Assembly: GCA_040386935.1 (NCBI GenBank)
Contig: JAZKEQ010000030.1
Span: 600-64,599 of the forward strand
Direction: 5' to 3'
DNA: 64,000 nucleotides
Origin: Bacteroidota bacterium
GTDB lineage: Bacteria; Bacteroidota; Bacteroidia; NS11-12g; UBA955
Positions 9,760-24,792 of the stretch are shown here, in pieces. Within the stretch, counting starts at the first letter, position 1. Each line of letters starts with the position of its first letter. Under the pieces are notes generated by a model. That model was not told the DNA's origin. It saw only the letters and a program-made list of their open reading frames with translations, and did no database searches. The position numbers and the translations under genes were made by a program.

Positions 9760-10962
9760 TTATAGTTTTTCGTAAACAATCGCCAGTCCCTGACCAACAC
9801 CGATACACATTGTTGCCAATCCGTATTGTAGGTTGCTGCGTTTTTGCATTTCGTGAATCAATGTTGTACTGATACGCGCACCGCTACATCCCAATGGATG
9901 ACCAATGGCGATAGCACCACCATTCACATTCACGATATCGGGATTCAATCCCAACTCGCGCATAGAGGCGATACTCTGACTGGCAAATGCCTCATTCAAT
10001 TCTACCAAGCCTAATTGTTGTACTGTTAAGCCGGCTCTTTTCAAAGCCTTGCGCGATGCTTCAACCGGTCCTATACCCATTATTTGCGGATGTACGCCAC
10101 TGGCTGCACTCGATACCACACGGGCCAAAGGTTGAATGTTATGGGCCTTCACAAAACTTTCTGAAGCCAATGCCAATGCACTTGCACCATCATTCACACC
10201 ACTTGAGTTACCGGCTGTTACGCTGCCATCTTTTTTAAAGGCAGGTTTTAATCCGCCCAATATTTCCATACTGCTCATACGGGGTTGTTCATCTCTGTTA
10301 AACAGCAATGCTTCCCCTTTTTTCTGAGGTATTTGAACGCCTACTATTTCGTTGGCGAATTTATTTTGTTTGTCGGCCTCCTGCCATTTCAATTGCGAGT
10401 TGTAAGCAAATGTATCTTGCTCATCTCTGCTTATTTTCCATTGGTCGGCTACGTTTTCTGCCGTTTCGCCCATGGTATAAGGGTGATATAGTTTTGATAA
10501 AGCAAGGTTGGTAAAACGCCAGCCTATGGTCGTATCGTGAATTTCAGGTGCACGGCCGAAAGCTGTATCAGATTTTGCCATTACAAATGGTGCACGGCTC
10601 ATGCTTTCAACGCCACCTGCTATATATAAGTCGCCATTGCCTTGTGCTATTTCCATGGCTGCATTGGCTACAGCCTGCAGTCCACTGGCGCAAAGGCGAT
10701 TCACTGTATAGCCTGCCACGGTAACCGGCAAGCCTGCTAATAGCAAAGCCATACGCGCTACGTTTCTATTGTCTTCACCGGCCTGATTGGCAGCGCCTAA
10801 TACCACTTCCTCTGTTTGATCAAAGGGCAGGTTGGGGTGGCGGTCCAGTAATCCTTTGATGGCAATAGCAGCCAGATCATCAGGACGAACAGAAGATAGC
10901 GTGCCGGCATATTTGCCTATGGCTGTTCTAACAGCATCGATAACATAAACGGTTTCTTTCAT
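9760..10962 (-). CDS. acetyl-CoA C-acyltransferase (thiolase)
   Basis: It has the active-site context NRLCASGLQAV and the C-terminal motif NGGAIAIGHPLGCSGAR. Confidence 0.9.
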   Translation of the reverse strand: MKETVYVIDAVRTAIGKYAGTLSSVRPDDLAAIAIKGLLDRHPNLPFDQTEEVVLGAANQAGEDNRNVARMALLLAGLPVTVAGYTVNRLCASGLQAVANAAMEIAQGNGDLYIAGGVESMSRAPFVMAKSDTAFGRAPEIHDTTIGWRFTNLALSKLYHPYTMGETAENVADQWKISRDEQDTFAYNSQLKWQEADKQNKFANEIVGVQIPQKKGEALLFNRDEQPRMSSMEILGGLKPAFKKDGSVTAGNSSGVNDGASALALASESFVKAHNIQPLARVVSSAASGVHPQIMGIGPVEASRKALKRAGLTVQQLGLVELNEAFASQSIASMRELGLNPDIVNVNGGAIAIGHPLGCSGARISTTLIHEMQKRSNLQYGLATMCIGVGQGLAIVYEKL

Positions 10963-11112
10963 GGAGCCGCAAAATTACTAAATTGTAAGGTGATACCGCA
11001 TAGGGTTTCTTGATTTGTTTATTGACATTGTCCTTTTAGTTTAAAAAAGTCGGGAAATAAAAAAAGAGCTACCGCAGTAGCCCTTTTTATTGAAAACATG
11101 AATCAACTATTC

Positions 11113-11526
11113 CTATCGGGCGTAATTGTAATTATTTTTTGTAGTACCTGACATGAATTCTGTTTGAAGATTCTTGTCATCGAGTTTCAGAATTTTCCAA
11201 GTGTAAGGAGTCATGACACCTGTTAATGTCACTTTTAATTCATTAGAATCTGTCGTAGTAAATTTATAGGTGCCGATGTCTTTAAATGTGCCACTGATTT
11301 CAGCTCTGAAATTGCCATAGCGATTGAATTCATAACGGCCTGTACCATTGGTGGTTTTTTGCATGCCGTTTTCGAAGGTTTCTTTTAATACCCACACCTG
11401 ATTCAGTAGTTCTTTTTTAGATGGTGGTCTTGTAGATTGAGGAGGGTTTTCTGTTTCTGTTTTTTTACAAGCAGTAAAGGCTGCAAGGGCAGCGACTAAA
11501 ATAAATAGTTTGATGTTGTTTTTCAT
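11113..11526 (-). CDS. small lipoprotein, function unknown
   Basis: It has a signal peptide with a lipobox (LAAFTAC). I recognise no other motif. Confidence 0.5.
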   Translation of the reverse strand: MKNNIKLFILVAALAAFTACKKTETENPPQSTRPPSKKELLNQVWVLKETFENGMQKTTNGTGRYEFNRYGNFRAEISGTFKDIGTYKFTTTDSNELKVTLTGVMTPYTWKILKLDDKNLQTEFMSGTTKNNYNYAR

Positions 11527-11674
11527 TTGAATGATGAGATTTAATGTCTCTATTAAACGATTAATTGATAGCTGAGGTTGCTTGCTAATACGGCGTTATG
11601 AGCCTATTGTTGACCAATGGTAGACAGGTGTTGACGAACGACAGAAAACATAGGATGAATGTAAAGTGTTAAAT

Positions 11675-12379
11675 TTACGAGCGGTTAAATAACAGCGAGT
11701 GAATGTTCGATTTGTAAATACGGCCAACGGGTACTTCACCCATTCCTGAAAGTTTGATTTGATTAGCGGATACAGAGTCTATGAAATCGGTATTCACGAT
11801 ATAGGATTTGTGTACCATGATAAAGCGTTGGGAATCGAGTTGGCGGTAAAAGTTTTTGAGTGTTGAATGCACAGTATGCGAACGACCGTTTTGCAAATGC
11901 ACTTTTACATAATTCTGCATACCTGAAATATAGACCAACTCCGACAGATTGATTTTTTGAAGACGTCCATTAATTTTTATGAGGAAAAAATCTTTTTTAC
12001 CTGAGGCTGCATTGGTCATTATATTGAATTGCTTCAGGGCTTTTTCAGCGCTGTTTTCAAATTGGCTGAGTTGAATAGGTTTCATAAGCGTGTCAAGGGG
12101 TTTAAGTGTATTGTTTGATTTGGATGTCGAAGTTTGTAATAGGACAATAGCAGGTGGGCGACCGGCAGCGTTACGGATAACAGCTAAAGCGGAGAGGCCG
12201 GGAAATTCATCGCTTACAAACAGCACATCAATGCTATTGGTACTCATCAATTCAAGGGCAATTTCAGGGTTGGGCGCATAACCTGAAAAGTAAAGGTAAC
12301 CTACAATTGCAATGAATTCACGAATCTTCTCACCCACCACAGGGTCGTTGTCTGCTACAGCACATTTAATAATTGGCAT
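11675..12379 (-). CDS. LytTR-family response regulator
   Basis: It has a receiver domain (DVLFVSDEFPG, LMKPI) and a C-terminal LytTR domain (ISGMQNYVKVHL...HKSYIVN). I start it at the ATG at 12379. The track start at 12454 adds 25 atypical residues. Confidence 0.8.
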   Translation of the reverse strand: MPIIKCAVADNDPVVGEKIREFIAIVGYLYFSGYAPNPEIALELMSTNSIDVLFVSDEFPGLSALAVIRNAAGRPPAIVLLQTSTSKSNNTLKPLDTLMKPIQLSQFENSAEKALKQFNIMTNAASGKKDFFLIKINGRLQKINLSELVYISGMQNYVKVHLQNGRSHTVHSTLKNFYRQLDSQRFIMVHKSYIVNTDFIDSVSANQIKLSGMGEVPVGRIYKSNIHSLLFNRS

Positions 12380-12652
12380 AAAATAGTATAAGTGTAAAAT
12401 GCACTTCGATTCGAGGCAAAAAAATTTCCGCTCCGGCATTTGGCCGACAGTCATATCTCAATACAAACTGATTGTAGTAGGGTGTTTAAACCTGAACTAG
12501 TGTTAAACGGTAGTTTTTCTTATCAAATGGAAGTTATTTGTCTATTGACAACACGAGTTTTAAAAATGTTGCCTGACAATTAAAGGTTTTTGATGAACGA
12601 CAGGGAAAAGGGGGGAGGGAGAGAGTATTTGTGGTGAGTGGAAATTCACCTA

Positions 12653-12961
12653 TTAAATTTTTATTGATAATTCTAAATGGCCACCAAATCCAAGCTCAAC
12701 AATTTTTTGAAGTGTCGAAATTCGTACTTCTTTAATGTCGTTTTCTATTTTTGAAATATATGACTTTGTTGTACCAACTTTTTCAGCAAGCTGTTCTTGT
12801 GTCATACCCAATTCAATACGGGTATTGTGAATTAAAGCTCCCATTTTGAAATTATCATAACCGGCTTCAAGTTCATCGCGTTTTTTTGAACCACGTTTAC
12901 CATAATTTTTTTCTTTGAAATCTTCAAGAGAGGTTAGATTCTTATTTTTTAATTCGCTCAT
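12653..12961 (-). CDS. XRE-family HTH antitoxin (HigA-like)
   Basis: 102 aa with the HTH segment MTQEQLAEKVGTTKSYISKIEN. It lies 26 nt downstream of the toxin-like gene. Confidence 0.8.
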   Translation of the reverse strand: MSELKNKNLTSLEDFKEKNYGKRGSKKRDELEAGYDNFKMGALIHNTRIELGMTQEQLAEKVGTTKSYISKIENDIKEVRISTLQKIVELGFGGHLELSIKI

Positions 12962-12987
12962 GATTTTTATATTGGTGGTGCTTATTG

Positions 12988-13335
12988 TTATTTTTGAAGT
13001 TCGTATTCTGCCTTTATTCTCAAGGCTAATTCAATTTCTTTTTTAGGGGTCTTTTGTGTTTTCTTTTGAAATCCATTTGCGACTATTATTAATTGTCCAT
13101 GATCAAAAAAGCAGAAAATTCTAAAGATATCACTGCCAATTTGAACCCTTATTTCATAAAGTCCATCAGTGCTTTCAATGTGTTTAAGGTACGTTTCAGG
13201 AACTCTTTGTAAGTCTTCAACCAAGTTTAAAGTCCATATAATTTTTGCTTTAACCTTTTTTGATTGCTTGTCAAAGAAGACTTGAAAATAGTTTTTGAAA
13301 AAAGTAACACTTCTAAACTTCTTGTTTTCAGCCAT
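12988..13335 (-). CDS. type II toxin, Gp49/HigB (RelE/ParE superfamily)-like
   Basis: 115 aa. The pattern LKHIESTDGLYEIRVQIGSDIFRIFCFFDHGQLIIVANGFQKKTQKTPKKEIE is typical of phage-derived Gp49-like killer proteins. The toxin-first gene order also fits. Confidence 0.75.
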   Translation of the reverse strand: MAENKKFRSVTFFKNYFQVFFDKQSKKVKAKIIWTLNLVEDLQRVPETYLKHIESTDGLYEIRVQIGSDIFRIFCFFDHGQLIIVANGFQKKTQKTPKKEIELALRIKAEYELQK

Positions 13336-13370
13336 CTAAATTACAATTATGCAAAGATAAGAAAGTTTCA

Positions 13371-13466
13371 CTAAAGTGCAACTATGAAATTTATTTTTTC
13401 TTCAATGTTTTGCAAATCGGCCAGCTGCTCCCGAATGCGGTTTGCTAAATTATCGTTGTATGCCAT
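13371..13466 (-). pseudogene. truncated TfoX N-terminal-domain-like remnant (31 codons)
   Basis: My translation gives MAYNDNLANRIREQLADLQNIEEKINFIVAL-stop. The first ~23 residues resemble the start of ~110-aa TfoX/Sxy N-domain proteins, and then the frame ends. This rests on my recollection of the family consensus only. Confidence 0.4.
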
Positions 13467-13547
13467 ACAAGTATTTTTAGCGAAGATAAAAACTTGCAGG
13501 TATATAACAAGCAAGTTTCGTGTATTCAGGAGCGTTATCCAACTGTT

Positions 13548-19429: not shown

Positions 19430-19876
19430 TTATTTTTTAGTTTTTGCTAGCCAATCTTCATTTATAGAAATAAAATGGTCTAATGTGTCACAGCATTCTG
19501 TATACTGGCAAGTGTCTGACCATTTCAAAGATTTTTCTAAATCTGTTGTACTATCGCGATTCAATCCGGTCAAGTCGCGATAATCAAATTTGACAATATT
19601 TCTTAGTTGGTCAATTTCTACTTTAAGGGTCTTTGAGTAATTTACTTTATTGTCAATCGGTAGTGAAATCAACAAGCTGAATAATGACGTTCCCGGAAAG
19701 TAATAATTATTATAACCTTTTTCAATGATATACTTAACCAAAATACTAATTGGGCGAAGGCTGTTGCACTCTGATATCAGTTGGTCGTAAAATGAAAGGG
19801 TTTCAGCCCACTTTTCTTTTAAGTTAGTTGCTGTAGCCTCTGTGCCTTGGGTTATATCTTTGGAGTTAAGGGTCAT
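19430..19876 (-). CDS. hypothetical cytoplasmic protein
   Basis: 148 aa with no signal peptide. It lies 9 nt from the upstream gene. Confidence 0.45.
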   Translation of the reverse strand: MTLNSKDITQGTEATATNLKEKWAETLSFYDQLISECNSLRPISILVKYIIEKGYNNYYFPGTSLFSLLISLPIDNKVNYSKTLKVEIDQLRNIVKFDYRDLTGLNRDSTTDLEKSLKWSDTCQYTECCDTLDHFISINEDWLAKTKK

Positions 19877-19964: not shown

Positions 19965-20936
19965 TTATTTAGACCCTATTTTTGATATGCCATTTTTGGA
20001 TAATATTTCATTGATTATATCATTTTTTCTGTCACTATAGTCATATACAATCCGAGCTTTTTTTAGATTTTTCATCTCTTCAAAAATCTCAAATTTTTCC
20101 GGTTCTAATTTTTTTATTTGGTAGGCTATAAAGCTACTTAAGTTTTTTGCAGTTTTTAAATTCTCAATATTCTCTAACTTATTCAGCACATCAATAAAGA
20201 TGCTTTTCAGTGACAAGCATTTACTAAAATTAGGGAGGCATTTTAATTTAGAAAGCATAATTATACTTAAATGTTCTATGGAAGTGAGATCACTAACAAA
20301 ATGTATGTTTTCAATTGATCTTAAAGCGGATAATTCAAGCCTTTTTAATTTATTAAGTTTTGTAAGCTTTGACAAGTCTTTTATACCACCATACCCTAAA
20401 CTAAGGTCTTTTAAATTTGGAAGTTGAATTAAAACATCTAATTGGTTTTCTTTAATAGATGAAACATAAAGGTTTTCAACGGTTGATATTTTTGCAATTT
20501 TTTCAAAATCATTGAATTTTGCACTAGTATAGAGGCTAACTAGGTGGTTTAATTCTAAAAGTGGGGTTAATGATAATTTAGGGTTATTTGATGAAAATGA
20601 AAGAGATTTTAAATTATTGAGATAGCGGATATTGTTTAAGTTTTCTGCTATATTAAAATCCAATGTTAAATGTTCTAAATTGTCCAAGTATTTAAGAAAA
20701 CTCAAGTCTGACCAACTACCATCGTTGAAAAAAGTAAAGAGTCTTAATTTGATATTTGGCTTTAATTTGAAGAGTTTTTCATTTAATTTTTTGAAAGCAG
20801 AGTCATGAGGTTGTTTCTCAAACTGTATATCCTCAAGCTCTGTATTCTGACAAAGCCATTCAATGTTATCATCTGTAATATTAGGGTACAGGTGAAGTGA
20901 TTTTTTATTCAGTAAATAATCCTTTGTGTTTTCCAA
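19965..20936 (-). CDS. leucine-rich-repeat protein without a signal peptide
   Basis: It contains repeated LxxLxLxxN/L modules (NLEHLTLDF, NLKSLSFSS, NLKDLSLGY, KLKRLELSA, SIEHLSII, SLKSIFID). Confidence 0.7.
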   Translation of the reverse strand: MENTKDYLLNKKSLHLYPNITDDNIEWLCQNTELEDIQFEKQPHDSAFKKLNEKLFKLKPNIKLRLFTFFNDGSWSDLSFLKYLDNLEHLTLDFNIAENLNNIRYLNNLKSLSFSSNNPKLSLTPLLELNHLVSLYTSAKFNDFEKIAKISTVENLYVSSIKENQLDVLIQLPNLKDLSLGYGGIKDLSKLTKLNKLKRLELSALRSIENIHFVSDLTSIEHLSIIMLSKLKCLPNFSKCLSLKSIFIDVLNKLENIENLKTAKNLSSFIAYQIKKLEPEKFEIFEEMKNLKKARIVYDYSDRKNDIINEILSKNGISKIGSK

Positions 20937-21034: not shown

Positions 21035-21541
21035 TTACTGCTTTTCTTTAGTCAAGGTGTCCAATTTCTTTAAGGTTGTAGGAATTCTATTTTTACCACT
21101 CATGCTATTTATTAATTCACTAGCTTCATTAAGCTTAATTCCAATTGCAGTTATATAAAGTGGATTTATACTTTGGCCTCTTAAAAGTTTTCTTTTGTTT
21201 ATTTTAATAGTAGCAAAGTTTGTTTTTGCTACACCAATTACAGGGATTTTCGAATTTAATTTTTCGTATAAGTGTCCACCTAAGCCTAATTTTCCATTGT
21301 CGTCTAAATATACAAAACCATCAATTATAATCGCTTCTATATTATCAAATTTTATTTTTTCATACAAGCTCATAATACAAGGCAATTCCCTTTTATAAAA
21401 TTCTCCAGAAATATAGTCTTCGATGTTTTCGAGAATTTCAGTATAGATTTCATATTTTTCACAAGTATTCCAACTTTCAAATGCCAAACAAACAGTTTTG
21501 GCTTTATTTCCAAAATAATGAGTATCAAACGCTAAAATCAC
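21035..21541 (-). CDS. endonuclease V-like protein (compact, 168 aa)
   Basis: AFDTHY, YISGEFYKRELP, IIIDGFVYLDDNGKLGLGGHL and PVIGVAKTNF parallel the EndoV blocks (D, PYIPG..FRE.P, DG.G..HPR..G.A.H.G and IGVAK). The C-terminal RIPTTLKKLD parallels RLPEPTR.AD. Confidence 0.7.
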   Translation of the reverse strand: MILAFDTHYFGNKAKTVCLAFESWNTCEKYEIYTEILENIEDYISGEFYKRELPCIMSLYEKIKFDNIEAIIIDGFVYLDDNGKLGLGGHLYEKLNSKIPVIGVAKTNFATIKINKRKLLRGQSINPLYITAIGIKLNEASELINSMSGKNRIPTTLKKLDTLTKEKQ

Positions 21542-22350
21542 AATATATGTTCTATAGGGTCCTTTGGCAATAATAAGTCAGCATAACTAATTGTGTAATT
21601 TAAGAAAGGGTAAACAAAATTCAAACTTTTATTCTCTTCTCCTCTAAGTTTGAAAAACTCCTTTTCCTTTTCTTCACTTGCTAGTTTTAATTGTTCTCCA
21701 TTTTCAAAAAATGGTAAATTGTTTTTAAACTCGAGATATGTCTTTGAGGTCCTAAATGTCATGCCTAACCATCTATTTTCTAATTCAGGAATATTTAATT
21801 TAGTGTCAATGTCTAAAACTATTTTATGTTGAAATTTCATATTGGTTTCTGTTGAAAATAGAATTACTGAATTATGAGTTAAAAATAGTTCAGATTCTTC
21901 ATTCGTTATTTTGTCTTTAATTTTTAGCTTTCTTGTGTTGTGTTCTGTTAGCTTTTCAGGATTTTCATAACAAGAAAATAGCCCAATAAAGGAATTGTTT
22001 TCTAAGTCTAAACTTTGGTCGGAATGAAAGTTCATTTTCGAATACGTAGATTCATATATTTCAATTAGCGAATTATTGAATTGTAGATAAGGAATGTTTT
22101 TAAGGTTGTTTTTTATAACAGTTTGATTTATTGTACTGATTACAAAATTGTGGATTTTGGAAAATTTTTGTGCAGGTAAATTGTACTTGCTTGTCGTTCT
22201 AATAATTGGAACAAGGGTTTTTTCAATACGAACTAAATGATTGGCAATTCTACCATTGGTTATTTTTTCAAATTCAATTGAATTGGATAATTCTTCGAAT
22301 AAATTATCCTCGAACGGAAGAATGACTTTATAAAATTCCAAATCGTTCAT
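21538..22350 (-). CDS. AlkB-like 2OG-Fe(II) dioxygenase
   Basis: NNSLIEIYESTYSKMNFHSDQ...SFIGLFS, LTHNSVILF...KFQHKI and RWLGMTFR match the AlkB pattern (N.Y...H.D, distal H, R....TFR). Its stop overlaps the EndoV-like start by 4 nt. Confidence 0.65.
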   Translation of the reverse strand: MNDLEFYKVILPFEDNLFEELSNSIEFEKITNGRIANHLVRIEKTLVPIIRTTSKYNLPAQKFSKIHNFVISTINQTVIKNNLKNIPYLQFNNSLIEIYESTYSKMNFHSDQSLDLENNSFIGLFSCYENPEKLTEHNTRKLKIKDKITNEESELFLTHNSVILFSTETNMKFQHKIVLDIDTKLNIPELENRWLGMTFRTSKTYLEFKNNLPFFENGEQLKLASEEKEKEFFKLRGEENKSLNFVYPFLNYTISYADLLLPKDPIEHIL

Positions 22351-22358
22351 TGTAATTT

Positions 22359-23585
22359 TTAATATATTGGTTTTTCATAGTCGCCTAAATTCATGCTAAA
22401 ATGGACTTTTCCATATTCAACTAAATTTTCTGTTTTATTTTCTTCGGCATAAGAAGTTCTCAAATTTTCGATGGACTCCATGCTCATTGGTTCAAGTTTA
22501 ATTAAATTATCATTTTCTTTAATGAAAGTTTCACCATTCGTATACAATGCTTCTAAATTAGAACATCTTACTACATATCCCATTCTGATTGGAATTCTTT
22601 CAATATTTAGCATTGAGGGCCTAATTTCATGAGTATATAATCTGTTGGTAGAAAGTGGTATTATGAATACAGAATTTGGATATAATGTTACACTAAATTC
22701 TTTTTCTAAAGTATCATCAGTAACTGTATTTTTCAGTTTAAAGTGAAGCTTTGTTAACCCAGTTATTTGTTTATAACACCAGTCAAATCTATCCGAATTT
22801 GACGGCTCTAAATGTTTAAAATGATTTGTGTCATAAAATGTACAAAACGCAATAACGCCATCTTTGGGCATGTCTTTAGTTTTGTCAGAATGGGCTTTGA
22901 TTTTTGCTTTAATTTCCTTTCCGTTTTCTTCTGGTTTTATTGTGTTTTCATATATTTGAGCTAATACATGATTCAATTTTGTTTCTTTTTCAAAAATATA
23001 CTTCATTGAATCATTCAGGGTATTTAAAATAATATGGTCTGTATTTCTTAAATTATCAGAAGGTCCAGTAAAATTGCTAGAACATCTTAGGAGATGAAAA
23101 TGCAATGTTTCATTATTCTCATAGTCTTCTTTCTTTACTTCGGTTATATAAATACCTTTTCTGAATGCTTTAGTATCTTTGTTTGATTCAGTTAGTTGTT
23201 GAAATTCATGTTCTGATTTAATTTTATTGAAATAATCTTCCTTGTGAAAAAGGTTTCTAAAATATACACCAGCATTATGAATAATAATAGGAACCTCTCC
23301 AAGTGTGACCAGCGTGTTTTTGTTAGTAATCCAATTTTCGAAATTGTTAGATAATTCTTGAATTAAATGAAAAGAGTGATTAATTATTTTAGTATTTGAA
23401 AAATTTCCACAAGCATAAATTTTAATATCATTTTGAATACCCTCTATCTCAGAAAGACTATTAACGACTTTTCCGCAAAAATTTTGAATTAGATATTGTA
23501 GGTCTAAGTTCTCTTCTCCATCATTCTGTAAAACGACAAGTATATTTTTTTCTTTAGTGATTTGATTTTCAAATTGGGGTTTCAT
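22359..23585 (-). CDS. AlkB-like 2OG-Fe(II) dioxygenase with a ~200-aa uncharacterised N-terminal extension
   Basis: The C-terminal half carries LNHVLAQIYEN...KIKAHSDKTKD...GVIAFCTFY, LYPNSVFIIPL...LYTHEIRP and RIPIRMGYVVR. This is the same HxD...H...R.....R arrangement. Confidence 0.6.
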   Translation of the reverse strand: MKPQFENQITKEKNILVVLQNDGEENLDLQYLIQNFCGKVVNSLSEIEGIQNDIKIYACGNFSNTKIINHSFHLIQELSNNFENWITNKNTLVTLGEVPIIIHNAGVYFRNLFHKEDYFNKIKSEHEFQQLTESNKDTKAFRKGIYITEVKKEDYENNETLHFHLLRCSSNFTGPSDNLRNTDHIILNTLNDSMKYIFEKETKLNHVLAQIYENTIKPEENGKEIKAKIKAHSDKTKDMPKDGVIAFCTFYDTNHFKHLEPSNSDRFDWCYKQITGLTKLHFKLKNTVTDDTLEKEFSVTLYPNSVFIIPLSTNRLYTHEIRPSMLNIERIPIRMGYVVRCSNLEALYTNGETFIKENDNLIKLEPMSMESIENLRTSYAEENKTENLVEYGKVHFSMNLGDYEKPIY

Positions 23586-23710
23586 TATTTTACTAATAAC
23601 TTATTTTATTTATGCAATATACCAATTTTCCCAATCCCTCATTCCATTTCTTCAATAAATTCACCAAATAGTCAAATTGTAAGTCCTGTAGCCTTATAAT
23701 TTTCCCAAAA

Positions 23711-24005
23711 ATCGAACTCTGGTTCGAAATTCAACGAACGCAGTTCGAAAAATAGCGAAAGCAGTTCGAAAAGTAGCGAACGCAGTTAGAAATTCAGCGA
23801 ATACAGTTCGAAAAGTAACGAAAGTAGTTAGAAATTTTGCGAAAGCATTTCGAAATTCGAGGAACGGAGTGAGATATCTAGCGAAAGCAGTGAGAAATTT
23901 AGGGAACGCAGTGAGATATTTAGCGAAAGCAGTTAGAAAATCAGCGAAAGTAGTTAGAAATATTTCGACTGCGATGTGCTCAATTGCCAGCGCAGTTAGT
24001 AATAT
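23711..24005. repeat. head-to-tail array of 12-14 copies of a 21-bp unit, consensus AGCGAAAGCAGTT(C/A)GAAAWWT
   Basis: I parsed the units by hand. Exact 21-nt register holds from 23733 to 23963 (units start at 23733, 23754, 23775, 23796, 23817, 23838, 23859, 23880, 23901, 23922 and 23943). A 22-nt unit lies at 23711 and two decayed units at 23964-24005. Confidence 0.95.
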
Positions 24006-24056
24006 CAGTTGTCACCATTTTTTTTCGAGATGACAAGACAATTGTCAACGAATGAA

Positions 24057-24124
24057 AAAGCACACACATTCAGCAGCTTTGGTTTTTTGCATGAATTTGC
24101 AGGGCTGTTAAAAGTGTGTGCTTT
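24057..24124 (-). terminator. long-loop hairpin downstream of the carbonic anhydrase gene
   Basis: AAAGCACACAC (24057-24067) and GTGTGTGCTTT (24114-24124) form a perfect 11-bp inverted repeat. On the minus strand it is followed by TTTTT. Confidence 0.45.
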
Positions 24125-24147: not shown

Positions 24148-24792
24148 TTATGCACCCAAATTCATTGTGTCAGAATAAAAGGTAACATCTCCTGTCGCAA
24201 TATCGTGAGTGCCTCCAATAATTCCGATTTGTCCGCTTTCAATCATTTCTTTTAGGATTGGACTGCGTTCCATTATTGATTTAACGGTTCGCTTTACATT
24301 GATTGTCGCTACTTTTTCAACAAATGCAGGGTTGGTAGAGTTGCGATTTTCCGTTGTTGTATTTTCATCATCAACTGCAGGTCGTATTTTGGTGAGCAAC
24401 GCTGTGAGGTTACCCATTTCTACATGGTCGCAGGCCCCTTTTACAGCTCCGCATTTTGTATGACCTAACACTACAATGATTTTGGAACCTGCTACTTTAC
24501 AAGCAAATTCCATACTGCCTAAAATATCCTCATTGATAATGTTGCCGGCAATACGAACACTAAAAATATCGCCAAGTCCTTGGTCAAAGATGAGTTCAGC
24601 AGAGGTACGACTGTCGATGCAACTCAGAATTACAGCAAAAGGGTGCTGTCCGTCTGAGGTTTCATTTGCTTGTTGCAAAAGGTTGCGGTTCACTTTCAGG
24701 TTGTTTACAAACCTTTTATTTCCTTCTTTTAAAAGTTCTAAAGCCATTGAAGGAGTGATGGCTGCTTGCATTTCTTTTGTTAACGTTTTCAT
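24148..24792 (-). CDS. beta-class carbonic anhydrase
   Basis: It has CIDSR, the GDIFSVRIAGN context and HTKCGAVKGA (the Cys-Asp-Arg...His-x-x-Cys zinc site). Confidence 0.9.
   Translation of the reverse strand: MKTLTKEMQAAITPSMALELLKEGNKRFVNNLKVNRNLLQQANETSDGQHPFAVILSCIDSRTSAELIFDQGLGDIFSVRIAGNIINEDILGSMEFACKVAGSKIIVVLGHTKCGAVKGACDHVEMGNLTALLTKIRPAVDDENTTTENRNSTNPAFVEKVATINVKRTVKSIMERSPILKEMIESGQIGIIGGTHDIATGDVTFYSDTMNLGA

Follow-up and report, generated by a model that had tools for sequence, protein, structure and literature searches.

Gene arrangement of the cassette

We have analysed a window of 64,000 nucleotides from a member of the Bacteroidota (contig JAZKEQ010000030.1 of assembly GCA_040386935.1, positions 600 to 64,599 of the forward strand) and, within it, a cassette of three genes that lies on the minus strand. 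In the direction of transcription these are gene A (23585..22359, an open reading frame (ORF) of 408 aa), gene B (22350..21538, 270 aa) and gene C (21541..21035, 168 aa), for which the NCBI product names are 'hypothetical protein', 'alpha-ketoglutarate-dependent dioxygenase AlkB' and 'endonuclease V', respectively. A first-pass annotation, made from the letters of the window, had described the genes as tightly packed, and both the 8-nt spacer between A and B (22351..22358, minus strand) and the 4-nt overlap between the stop codon of B and the start codon of C (21538..21541, minus strand) can indeed be read in the sequence. The overlap had been given as one of the ATGA type; it is in fact GTGA, with the GTG start of C placed across the TGA stop of B, an arrangement that would imply translational coupling of C to B. 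The same annotation had correctly placed the cassette in the most AT-rich part of the window: the GC content reaches its minimum, 0.27–0.31, across 20–24 kb, and is 0.28 in the cassette compared with 0.38 in the window as a whole.

Proteins A and B as divergent AlkB-like paralogs

The identities of A and B were judged on fold, profile and metal ligands, and these support their assignment as divergent paralogs of the AlkB clade of 2-oxoglutarate (2OG)/Fe(II) dioxygenases, the folds being predicted ones. Protein B matches the AlkB-type Pfam family PF13532 with an E-value of 5.2e-7 and a score of 30.5 bits, just below the 31.2 cut-off of the Pfam copy used; in the precomputed annotation, B and all of its listed homologues carry PF13532. 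The AlphaFold2 (AF2) model of B, computed on the family alignment, has a predicted local distance difference test (pLDDT) score of 92, and a Foldseek comparison with the PDB placed ALKBH2 first (E = 1e-9, probability 1.0), followed by ALKBH3, NMAD-1, FTO, ALKBH5 and AlkB. Protein A of the window has no significant Pfam match and hence falls below the gathering threshold of PF13532; 19 of the 44 members of its family do match PF13532, the best with an E-value of 5.7e-5. Its AF2 model, likewise computed on the family alignment (pLDDT 79; predicted template modelling score, pTM, 0.85), retrieved ALKBH2, ALKBH3, AlkB and FTO as the top PDB entries (E = 4e-7, probability 1.0), and the best matches among the viral models of BFVD were AlkB-type proteins of giant viruses and plant RNA viruses. 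All of the top 30–50 Foldseek matches listed for A and B are nucleic-acid-modifying enzymes of the AlkB family, such that the structure search for a 2OG oxygenase fold, put forward as a check by the first-pass annotation, gave the expected outcome for both proteins. PDB sequence searches with the single sequences of A and B returned chance matches only.

The first-pass annotation had recognized an AlkB arrangement in both proteins from the motifs AHSDK, YTHEI and RMGYVVR of A and FHSDQ, FQHKI and RWLGMTFR of B, and all six are present. In A, the putative iron ligands are H232, D234 and H319, and the R-x5-R motif, which binds 2OG in AlkB enzymes, is formed by R334 and R340; all five residues are invariant in 44 sequences. 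Regular expressions applied to the distant A representatives of at least 380 aa (n = 140) detected the HxD context in 137, the distal-His context in 129 and R-x5-R in 132. For B, the 38 sequences compared all keep H109, D111, H175 and R200. The HxD...H triad is therefore retained throughout both families, in an AlkB-like 'HxDxxxxL/M' context, and the loss of metal ligands that would have spoken against the assignment is not seen in either. The claimed arrangement fails at one point: an invariant tryptophan of B, W194, is in register with the first arginine of the R-x5-R of A (W194-x5-R200), a register taken from the sequences themselves and not from coordinates, while the position just before it, R193, is basic (K or R) in Bacteroidota alone and gives way to E, T or V in distant relatives. 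Thus, HxD and the distal His hold for both proteins and R-x5-R for A, but not for B, which may bind 2OG in an unconventional manner. The 'N.Y' pair of AlkB, likewise ascribed to both proteins, keeps its Tyr but not its Asn, reading Q.Y in A and E.Y in B.

At ~21–25% identity, A and B are remote from one another, and yet an hhalign comparison of their two families gives a probability of 95.8% and an E-value of 7e-9, with residues 164–407 of A falling on residues 48–263 of B and HSD falling on HSD; tblastn cross-matches between the two extend down to E = 4e-9. The aligned region takes in a C-terminal helix and tail with no counterpart in canonical AlkB, a family-specific extension with the pattern 'EEN ... 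Y-G ... GDY-x-x-P' that is common to both proteins. From the hhalign comparison with the B family, the AlkB-like module of A, for which, as for B, the double-stranded beta-helix fold of the AlkB family is predicted, comprises residues ~110–408 (22362..23258, minus strand). It is preceded by a feature absent from the AlkB family, a small beta-alpha-beta N-terminal domain of ~105 aa (23271..23585, minus strand) that was delimited in the AF2 model, its boundary being approximate, and that falls outside the region alignable with B. The secondary structure elements predicted for it at high pLDDT are strands at residues 14–19, 39–41, 55–61 and 73–80 and a helix at residues 27–35, and it bears conserved FCG and YxCG motifs; its resemblance to BRCT is weak (E = 0.11 for the window protein; five of the 44 family members, best E = 0.021). 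An N-terminal region of ~200 aa, as originally proposed, is too long, since the residues from ~110 onwards belong to the AlkB-like module. The apparent extra domains of some long A homologues (899, 565 and 581 aa) were rejected as spurious ORF extensions, low-complexity inserts or B-A fusions.

A and B as the conserved unit

The A family has 2714 matches in a set of 5.8 billion proteins, and the B family has 323. Related loci were gathered via protein A (15 from genomes, 68 from metagenomes and three viral), and more were gathered via protein C. In each of the 14 genome loci with downstream DNA, A and B are neighbours that share one strand, and they are also adjacent in every Bacteroidota-type metagenome locus whose contig runs past A. 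In the Bacteroidota-type loci the two genes, on the same strand, mostly overlap or are separated by no more than 31 nt, with a few gaps of 76–203 nt. In distant relatives, at 42–50% identity, A and B are either tail-to-tail or fused: fusions account for 24 of 149 distant representatives (50% clustering), 18 of them in the order A-B and six in the order B-A, with A-type ligand motifs in 24/24 and B-type ligand motifs in 22/24. One fusion cluster includes a transcript from Ochromonas sp. CCMP1393, a stramenopile, and at least two of the three viral loci with A relatives are giant-virus metagenome-assembled genomes (MAGs); the pair homologues of the eukaryote and of the giant-virus MAGs are not accompanied by endonuclease V (EndoV).

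The conserved unit is, therefore, the A/B pair and not the A-B-C trio. Because the two genes are adjacent, and fused in both orders, the data argue strongly that A and B would work together physically. AlkB enzymes are single-subunit direct-reversal repair proteins and are not known to work as pairs; in the literature that was searched, we found no description of an AlkB-like family that is obligately paired and fused.

The loci with distant pairs are L050, L053, L056, L057, L067–L070, L072–L074, L077, L079, L080 and L089–L091, and the corresponding proteins are P0371–P0507. The fused distant relatives are single proteins of 580–1100 aa with both domain orders, some of which contain low-complexity inserts. 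Split or truncated copies of A or B were encountered in L010 (9218–10000), L027 (6604–7209), L040 and L071, examples being B in an uncultured Tenacibaculum MAG and A in L027; these are possibly pseudogenes or assembly errors.

Protein C, a minimal endonuclease V

Protein C scores 40.3 bits against the EndoV family PF04493 (cut-off 23.4; E = 3.5e-10), and an alignment with the T. maritima and E. coli enzymes shows that D6, Y43, E52, D74, H90 and K106 are kept. Of these, D6, E52, D74, K106 and Y43 correspond in the alignment to D43, E89, D110, K139 and Y80 of T. maritima EndoV. Hence, the EndoV catalytic blocks are retained in only 168 aa, as the first-pass annotation had reported. Canonical EndoV (nfi) has ~225 aa; missing from C are the N-terminal ~37 aa (with the N-terminal helix), an insert of ~14 aa and the C-terminal GH, so that there is no counterpart of H214 of T. 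maritima. C shares with the canonical enzyme the Asp/Glu/Asp set, the Lys of GVAK and the wedge Tyr, whereas its PYIPG wedge has become EYISG, and its DGxG-AHPR block reads DGFVYLDDN. Both the retained catalytic residues and the lost elements are invariant across 30 family members of 166–185 aa. When the family profile was compared with the PDB, EndoV chains were the only significant matches (3goc, E = 3.7e-5). Scores against the NCBIfam EndoV equivalogs are far lower than their cut-offs (30.6 bits versus 230 for NF008629 and 28.1 versus 300 for NF041102), and on this evidence C is a minimal member of the EndoV family and not a canonical nfi orthologue. The family has 3229 matches. The notion that B and C are one frameshifted gene was dismissed: every C homologue begins with the same Met (MIL[AS]FDT), and their lengths are 162–201 aa.

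A second family of short EndoV-superfamily proteins is Endo_dU/DUF99 (PF01949; 2QH9 of A. fulgidus), which resembles C in having no equivalent of an N-terminal element of T. maritima EndoV. The C-terminal 35 residues of C match PF01949 weakly (E = 7e-4; 19.4 bits versus a cut-off of 32.7), and the family profile of C has no match to 2QH9. Moreover, C keeps the Asp/Glu/Asp residues of EndoV invariantly, whereas the first Asp is poorly conserved in Endo_dU. The DUF99/Endo_dU proteins, in which the DEDD set is incomplete, are endonucleases specific for dU (PMC11585767), and EndoV makes its nick 3' of deoxyinosine or other deaminated bases (PMC11585767, PMC4693234, PMC3741635); EndoV enzymes, including that of E. 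coli, are also active ribonucleases at inosine (PMC3741635).

Linkage of protein C to the pair

Of the 32 loci that can be regarded as unbiased, having been found through protein A and having adequate flanks, 11 carry gene C beside the pair (two of 14 genomes and nine of 18 metagenome contigs). The dedicated three-gene cassette envisaged by the first-pass annotation, therefore, survives in part: A lies next to B in all of the loci that are informative, but C joins them in only this fraction. Where it does so, two gene orders are seen, with C downstream of B (A-B-C) in the window, L001, L003, L017, L020, L022, L026, L028, L036 and L060, and upstream of A (C-A-B) in L023, L024, L025 and L027. 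B and C overlap by 4 nt in L020, L022, L026, L028 and L060, an ATG start having been called in four of these, and are 4–7 nt apart in L001, L003, L017 and L036. The named genomes with the trio belong to four genera, Flavobacterium, Arcicella, Cellulophaga and Pedobacter, and the concern that the three genes might never co-occur elsewhere is thereby removed. C is also the only neighbour of the pair that recurs beyond the synteny shared among close relatives. Since there are two gene orders and a conserved coupling, we regard the linkage between C and the pair as real and apparently selected, yet facultative. No AlkB–EndoV operon, and no recurrent operon of the pair with a minimal EndoV, is described in the literature that was searched.

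C is also found on its own. Among six such copies, four, all of Flavobacterium type, have AHSA1 and DUF4256 neighbours, accompanied by DUF1801 in two. The lone-EndoV loci with DUF4256 and AHSA1 are L016, L093, L094 and L095, and DUF1801 and DUF4256 are likewise present in the pair-bearing loci L022 and L026. This suggests that, in Flavobacterium-type genomes, a resident EndoV gene may either have gained the pair by insertion at its side or have lost it.

Genomic context of the cassette

The insertion sites of the cassette differ in every genus, and the GC content of the cassette is lower than that of its flanks in 20 of 22 loci; the reading of the cassette as a mobile repair module, which would involve horizontal transfer, fits both observations. 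A look for the boundaries of a mobile element revealed no convincing direct or inverted repeats and no integrase in the flanks of the cassette, and the window contains no tRNA gene.

A PADLOC search with A, B, C and the two genes downstream yielded a single sub-threshold match, in which B hit CARF_2OG through the generic 2OG portion of that model (E = 2.6e-4), and there were no matches in PHROG. Across the related loci, no methyltransferase, helicase, ATPase or other defence partner recurs beside the pair. With PADLOC and PHROG giving no meaningful match, ordinary flanks and EndoV as the sole recurrent partner, we rejected the assignment of the cassette to a defence system. Individual loci have neighbours of a different kind. 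In L001 (Arcicella aquatica; 10741–13505), the trio is followed by a small, probable helix-turn-helix protein and by two ORFs, one of 454 aa with an FSGCG motif like that of cytosine-C5 methyltransferases and one of 363 aa, an arrangement seen in no other locus; these ORFs possibly constitute a restriction-modification system. An Imm11 gene lies nearby in L017, and genes resembling RHS-type toxins lie nearby in L025.

In the window, the cassette is flanked on one side by genes for a beta-carbonic anhydrase (24148..24792, minus strand), a bestrophin and a TetR protein, and on the other by those for an alpha/beta hydrolase and a DUF6438 protein. The upstream edge of the low-GC segment is marked by a 21-nt inverted repeat (24057–24124; 86% complementary, 26-nt loop) that lies immediately downstream of the carbonic anhydrase gene and is probably the terminator of that gene. 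Between this hairpin and the start of gene A, there is a tandem array of a 21-bp repeat with the consensus GTTAGAAATTTAGCGAAAGCA (23722–23961; ~11 copies, 73% matches), the register of which reaches ~23681–24010. The array occurs once in the window, where zero matches would be expected by chance; it is kept in no related locus and has no Rfam match. Downstream of the cassette, the same low-GC stretch encodes a 323-aa leucine-rich-repeat (LRR) protein (19965–20936, minus strand; called with a TTG start; GC 0.28) and a protein of 148 aa that matches no family (19430–19876, minus strand). Both were considered as parts of the system and discarded, homologues being present in 0 of 90 related loci; LRR genes are also close to the pair in L003, L056 and L073, probably by coincidence.

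Proposed function of the cassette

The explanation that we favour, and to which we would give an even chance of being correct, is that the cassette is a compact, horizontally mobile operon for the repair of damaged nucleic-acid bases. A and B are ancient tandem paralogs of the AlkB clade that would act together, most likely as a heteromer. A, with the full AlkB signature (HxD...H and R-x5-R), would be the canonical catalytic subunit, its added domain serving for targeting; B would be the divergent partner, a specialized or partly regulatory subunit, as suggested by the replacement of the first 2OG-binding Arg by Trp. The complex would remove alkyl or exocyclic adducts from the bases of DNA or RNA, using Fe(II), 2OG and O2, and C, made in a fixed ratio through translational coupling, would nick beside deaminated or otherwise irreversible lesions, such that the operon would cover both alkylation and deamination damage. 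AlkB enzymes reverse 1-methyladenine, 3-methylcytosine and etheno lesions, and nitrosative stress not only deaminates bases but also gives rise to alkylating agents; since the two classes of lesion can arise from the same stress, the pairing of these activities would make chemical sense.

There are systems with which the cassette may be compared, namely, the ada-alkB operon of E. coli, as a repair operon, and, as two-domain or paralog-pair enzymes, the OGFOD1/Tpa1 proteins with their two double-stranded beta-helices and the METTL3–METTL14 heterodimer. As in ada-alkB, an AlkB-type gene is presumably transcribed together with another base-repair gene, although here the partner is EndoV and not a methyltransferase. 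As in OGFOD1/Tpa1 and METTL3–METTL14, two related modules of a catalytic fold would form a unit, possibly one catalytic and one structural; both A and B keep the iron ligands, whereas the C-terminal double-stranded beta-helix of Tpa1 does not.

A number of points weigh against the repair operon. The AlkB-clade assignment is founded on Pfam and on comparisons of predicted structures: PDB searches with the family profiles of A and B found no relative, and in this the two differ from the AlkB family proper, as they do in the position of A below the Pfam threshold. An hhalign comparison of the B profile with the single E. coli AlkB sequence gave a probability of 0.09, a result that is uninformative because both profiles are shallow. 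Since the first Arg of the 2OG-binding R-x5-R motif is replaced in B, this protein may not be a conventional dioxygenase. Several of the eukaryotic fusions start with a hydrophobic segment that, by eye, is like a membrane anchor, which is atypical for DNA repair enzymes, and some members of the AlkB family act on RNA or protein. As for C, it is missing from two thirds of the pair loci, and when C homologues were looked up on long contigs, the pair lay beside one of the seven and the other six were lone; the linkage is accordingly an optional one, which might in part have arisen by insertion beside a resident gene. Finally, the predicted folds, the ligands and the linkage are observations, but we infer the activity, the substrates, the formation of a heteromer and the division of labour.

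Several of these points lead to alternatives. The target may be RNA, with the A/B complex removing or oxidizing methyl marks or lesions on tRNA, rRNA or mRNA, in the manner of ALKBH1/3/5/8 and FTO, and the short EndoV acting as an inosine- or lesion-specific ribonuclease that would dispose of irreparable RNA. The structural matches include FTO, ALKBH5 and AlkB domains from plant RNA viruses, the cleavage of RNA at inosine is documented for EndoV enzymes including that of E. coli (PMC3741635), and eukaryotes and giant-virus MAGs have the pair without EndoV. The best of the structural matches are, however, the DNA repair enzymes ALKBH2 and ALKBH3, and no partner for RNA repair (RtcB, ligase or kinase, for instance) recurs nearby; the sequences do not separate DNA from RNA substrates, and we judge the two parts of this proposal, taken jointly, to be unlikely, though worth entertaining. 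It is rather doubtful that the A/B pair instead hydroxylates a protein or a small molecule, the adjacency of EndoV being the result of insertion beside a resident gene, followed by co-transfer. The activity on proteins that is reported for some AlkB-family members would agree with this, as would the missing canonical 2OG-binding Arg of B, the membrane-anchor-like segments of some eukaryotic fusions and the fact that the Flavobacterium EndoV gene keeps its neighbours (DUF1801, DUF4256) with or without the pair; but a linkage that comes in two gene orders and four genera, with conserved start/stop overlaps, is hard to account for without selection, and nucleic-acid modification is common to all of the top-ranking Foldseek matches described above.

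The first-pass annotation had also raised a base-modification or restriction-like role, with a mark made or erased by the dioxygenases and read by the nuclease. In the form considered here, the dioxygenases would write or erase an oxidized base mark and the EndoV-like nuclease would cut nucleic acid carrying or lacking it, potentially in defence against phages. The low GC content and the varied insertion sites of the cassette could be read in this way, and so could the probable restriction-modification system next to the trio in L001 (judged from its cytosine-methyltransferase-like motif), the Imm11 and putative RHS-type toxin genes close to the cassette in L017 and L025, respectively, and the weak PADLOC match of B to CARF_2OG. 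These features are outweighed by the lack of a meaningful PADLOC match and of any PHROG match for A, B and C, by the lack of a recurrent methyltransferase, helicase or ATPase partner, and by the setting of most loci, including the window, among ordinary chromosomal genes. Furthermore, two thirds of the pairs have no nuclease, the nuclease is mostly alone and in a conserved Flavobacterium neighbourhood, and the pair is conserved at 42–50% identity in giant-virus MAGs and in a eukaryote, again with no nuclease at its side. We consider this role very improbable. A related but distinct possibility, which we would call a long shot of about the same order as hydroxylation of a protein, is that A and B form an obligate heteromeric dioxygenase, extending from Bacteroidota to giant viruses and stramenopiles and fused in the eukaryotes, that does more than reverse methyl lesions and makes or processes a specific oxidized base in DNA or RNA, with the minimal EndoV, in bacteria that have it, recognizing the product and nicking beside it; if true, this would be a new oxidation-then-incision pathway for repair or for the removal of a mark.

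The individual folds are known, and B and C already carry the correct family names; what appears to be new, judging from the literature searched, is the obligately paired and, in distant relatives, fused AlkB-like family itself, along with its recurrent operon with a minimal EndoV. Its A branch, with 2714 matches, is without Pfam coverage at threshold and is annotated as 'hypothetical'. If the function were to prove to be ordinary alkylation repair, the gain would be a modest one in annotation. An obligately paired AlkB would nevertheless represent a new way to build such an enzyme, with one partner bearing an extra domain and the other an altered 2OG site, an arrangement that resembles catalytic/accessory paralog pairs, such as METTL3–METTL14, and the reach of this paired architecture into eukaryotes and giant viruses was unexpected. 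Protein C, at 168 aa, is a near-minimal version of the EndoV fold and may find practical use as a lesion-specific nicking enzyme. Overall, the coupling of the minimal EndoV to the A/B pair leads to a testable hypothesis, namely, that a single small operon may deal with both alkylation and deamination damage.

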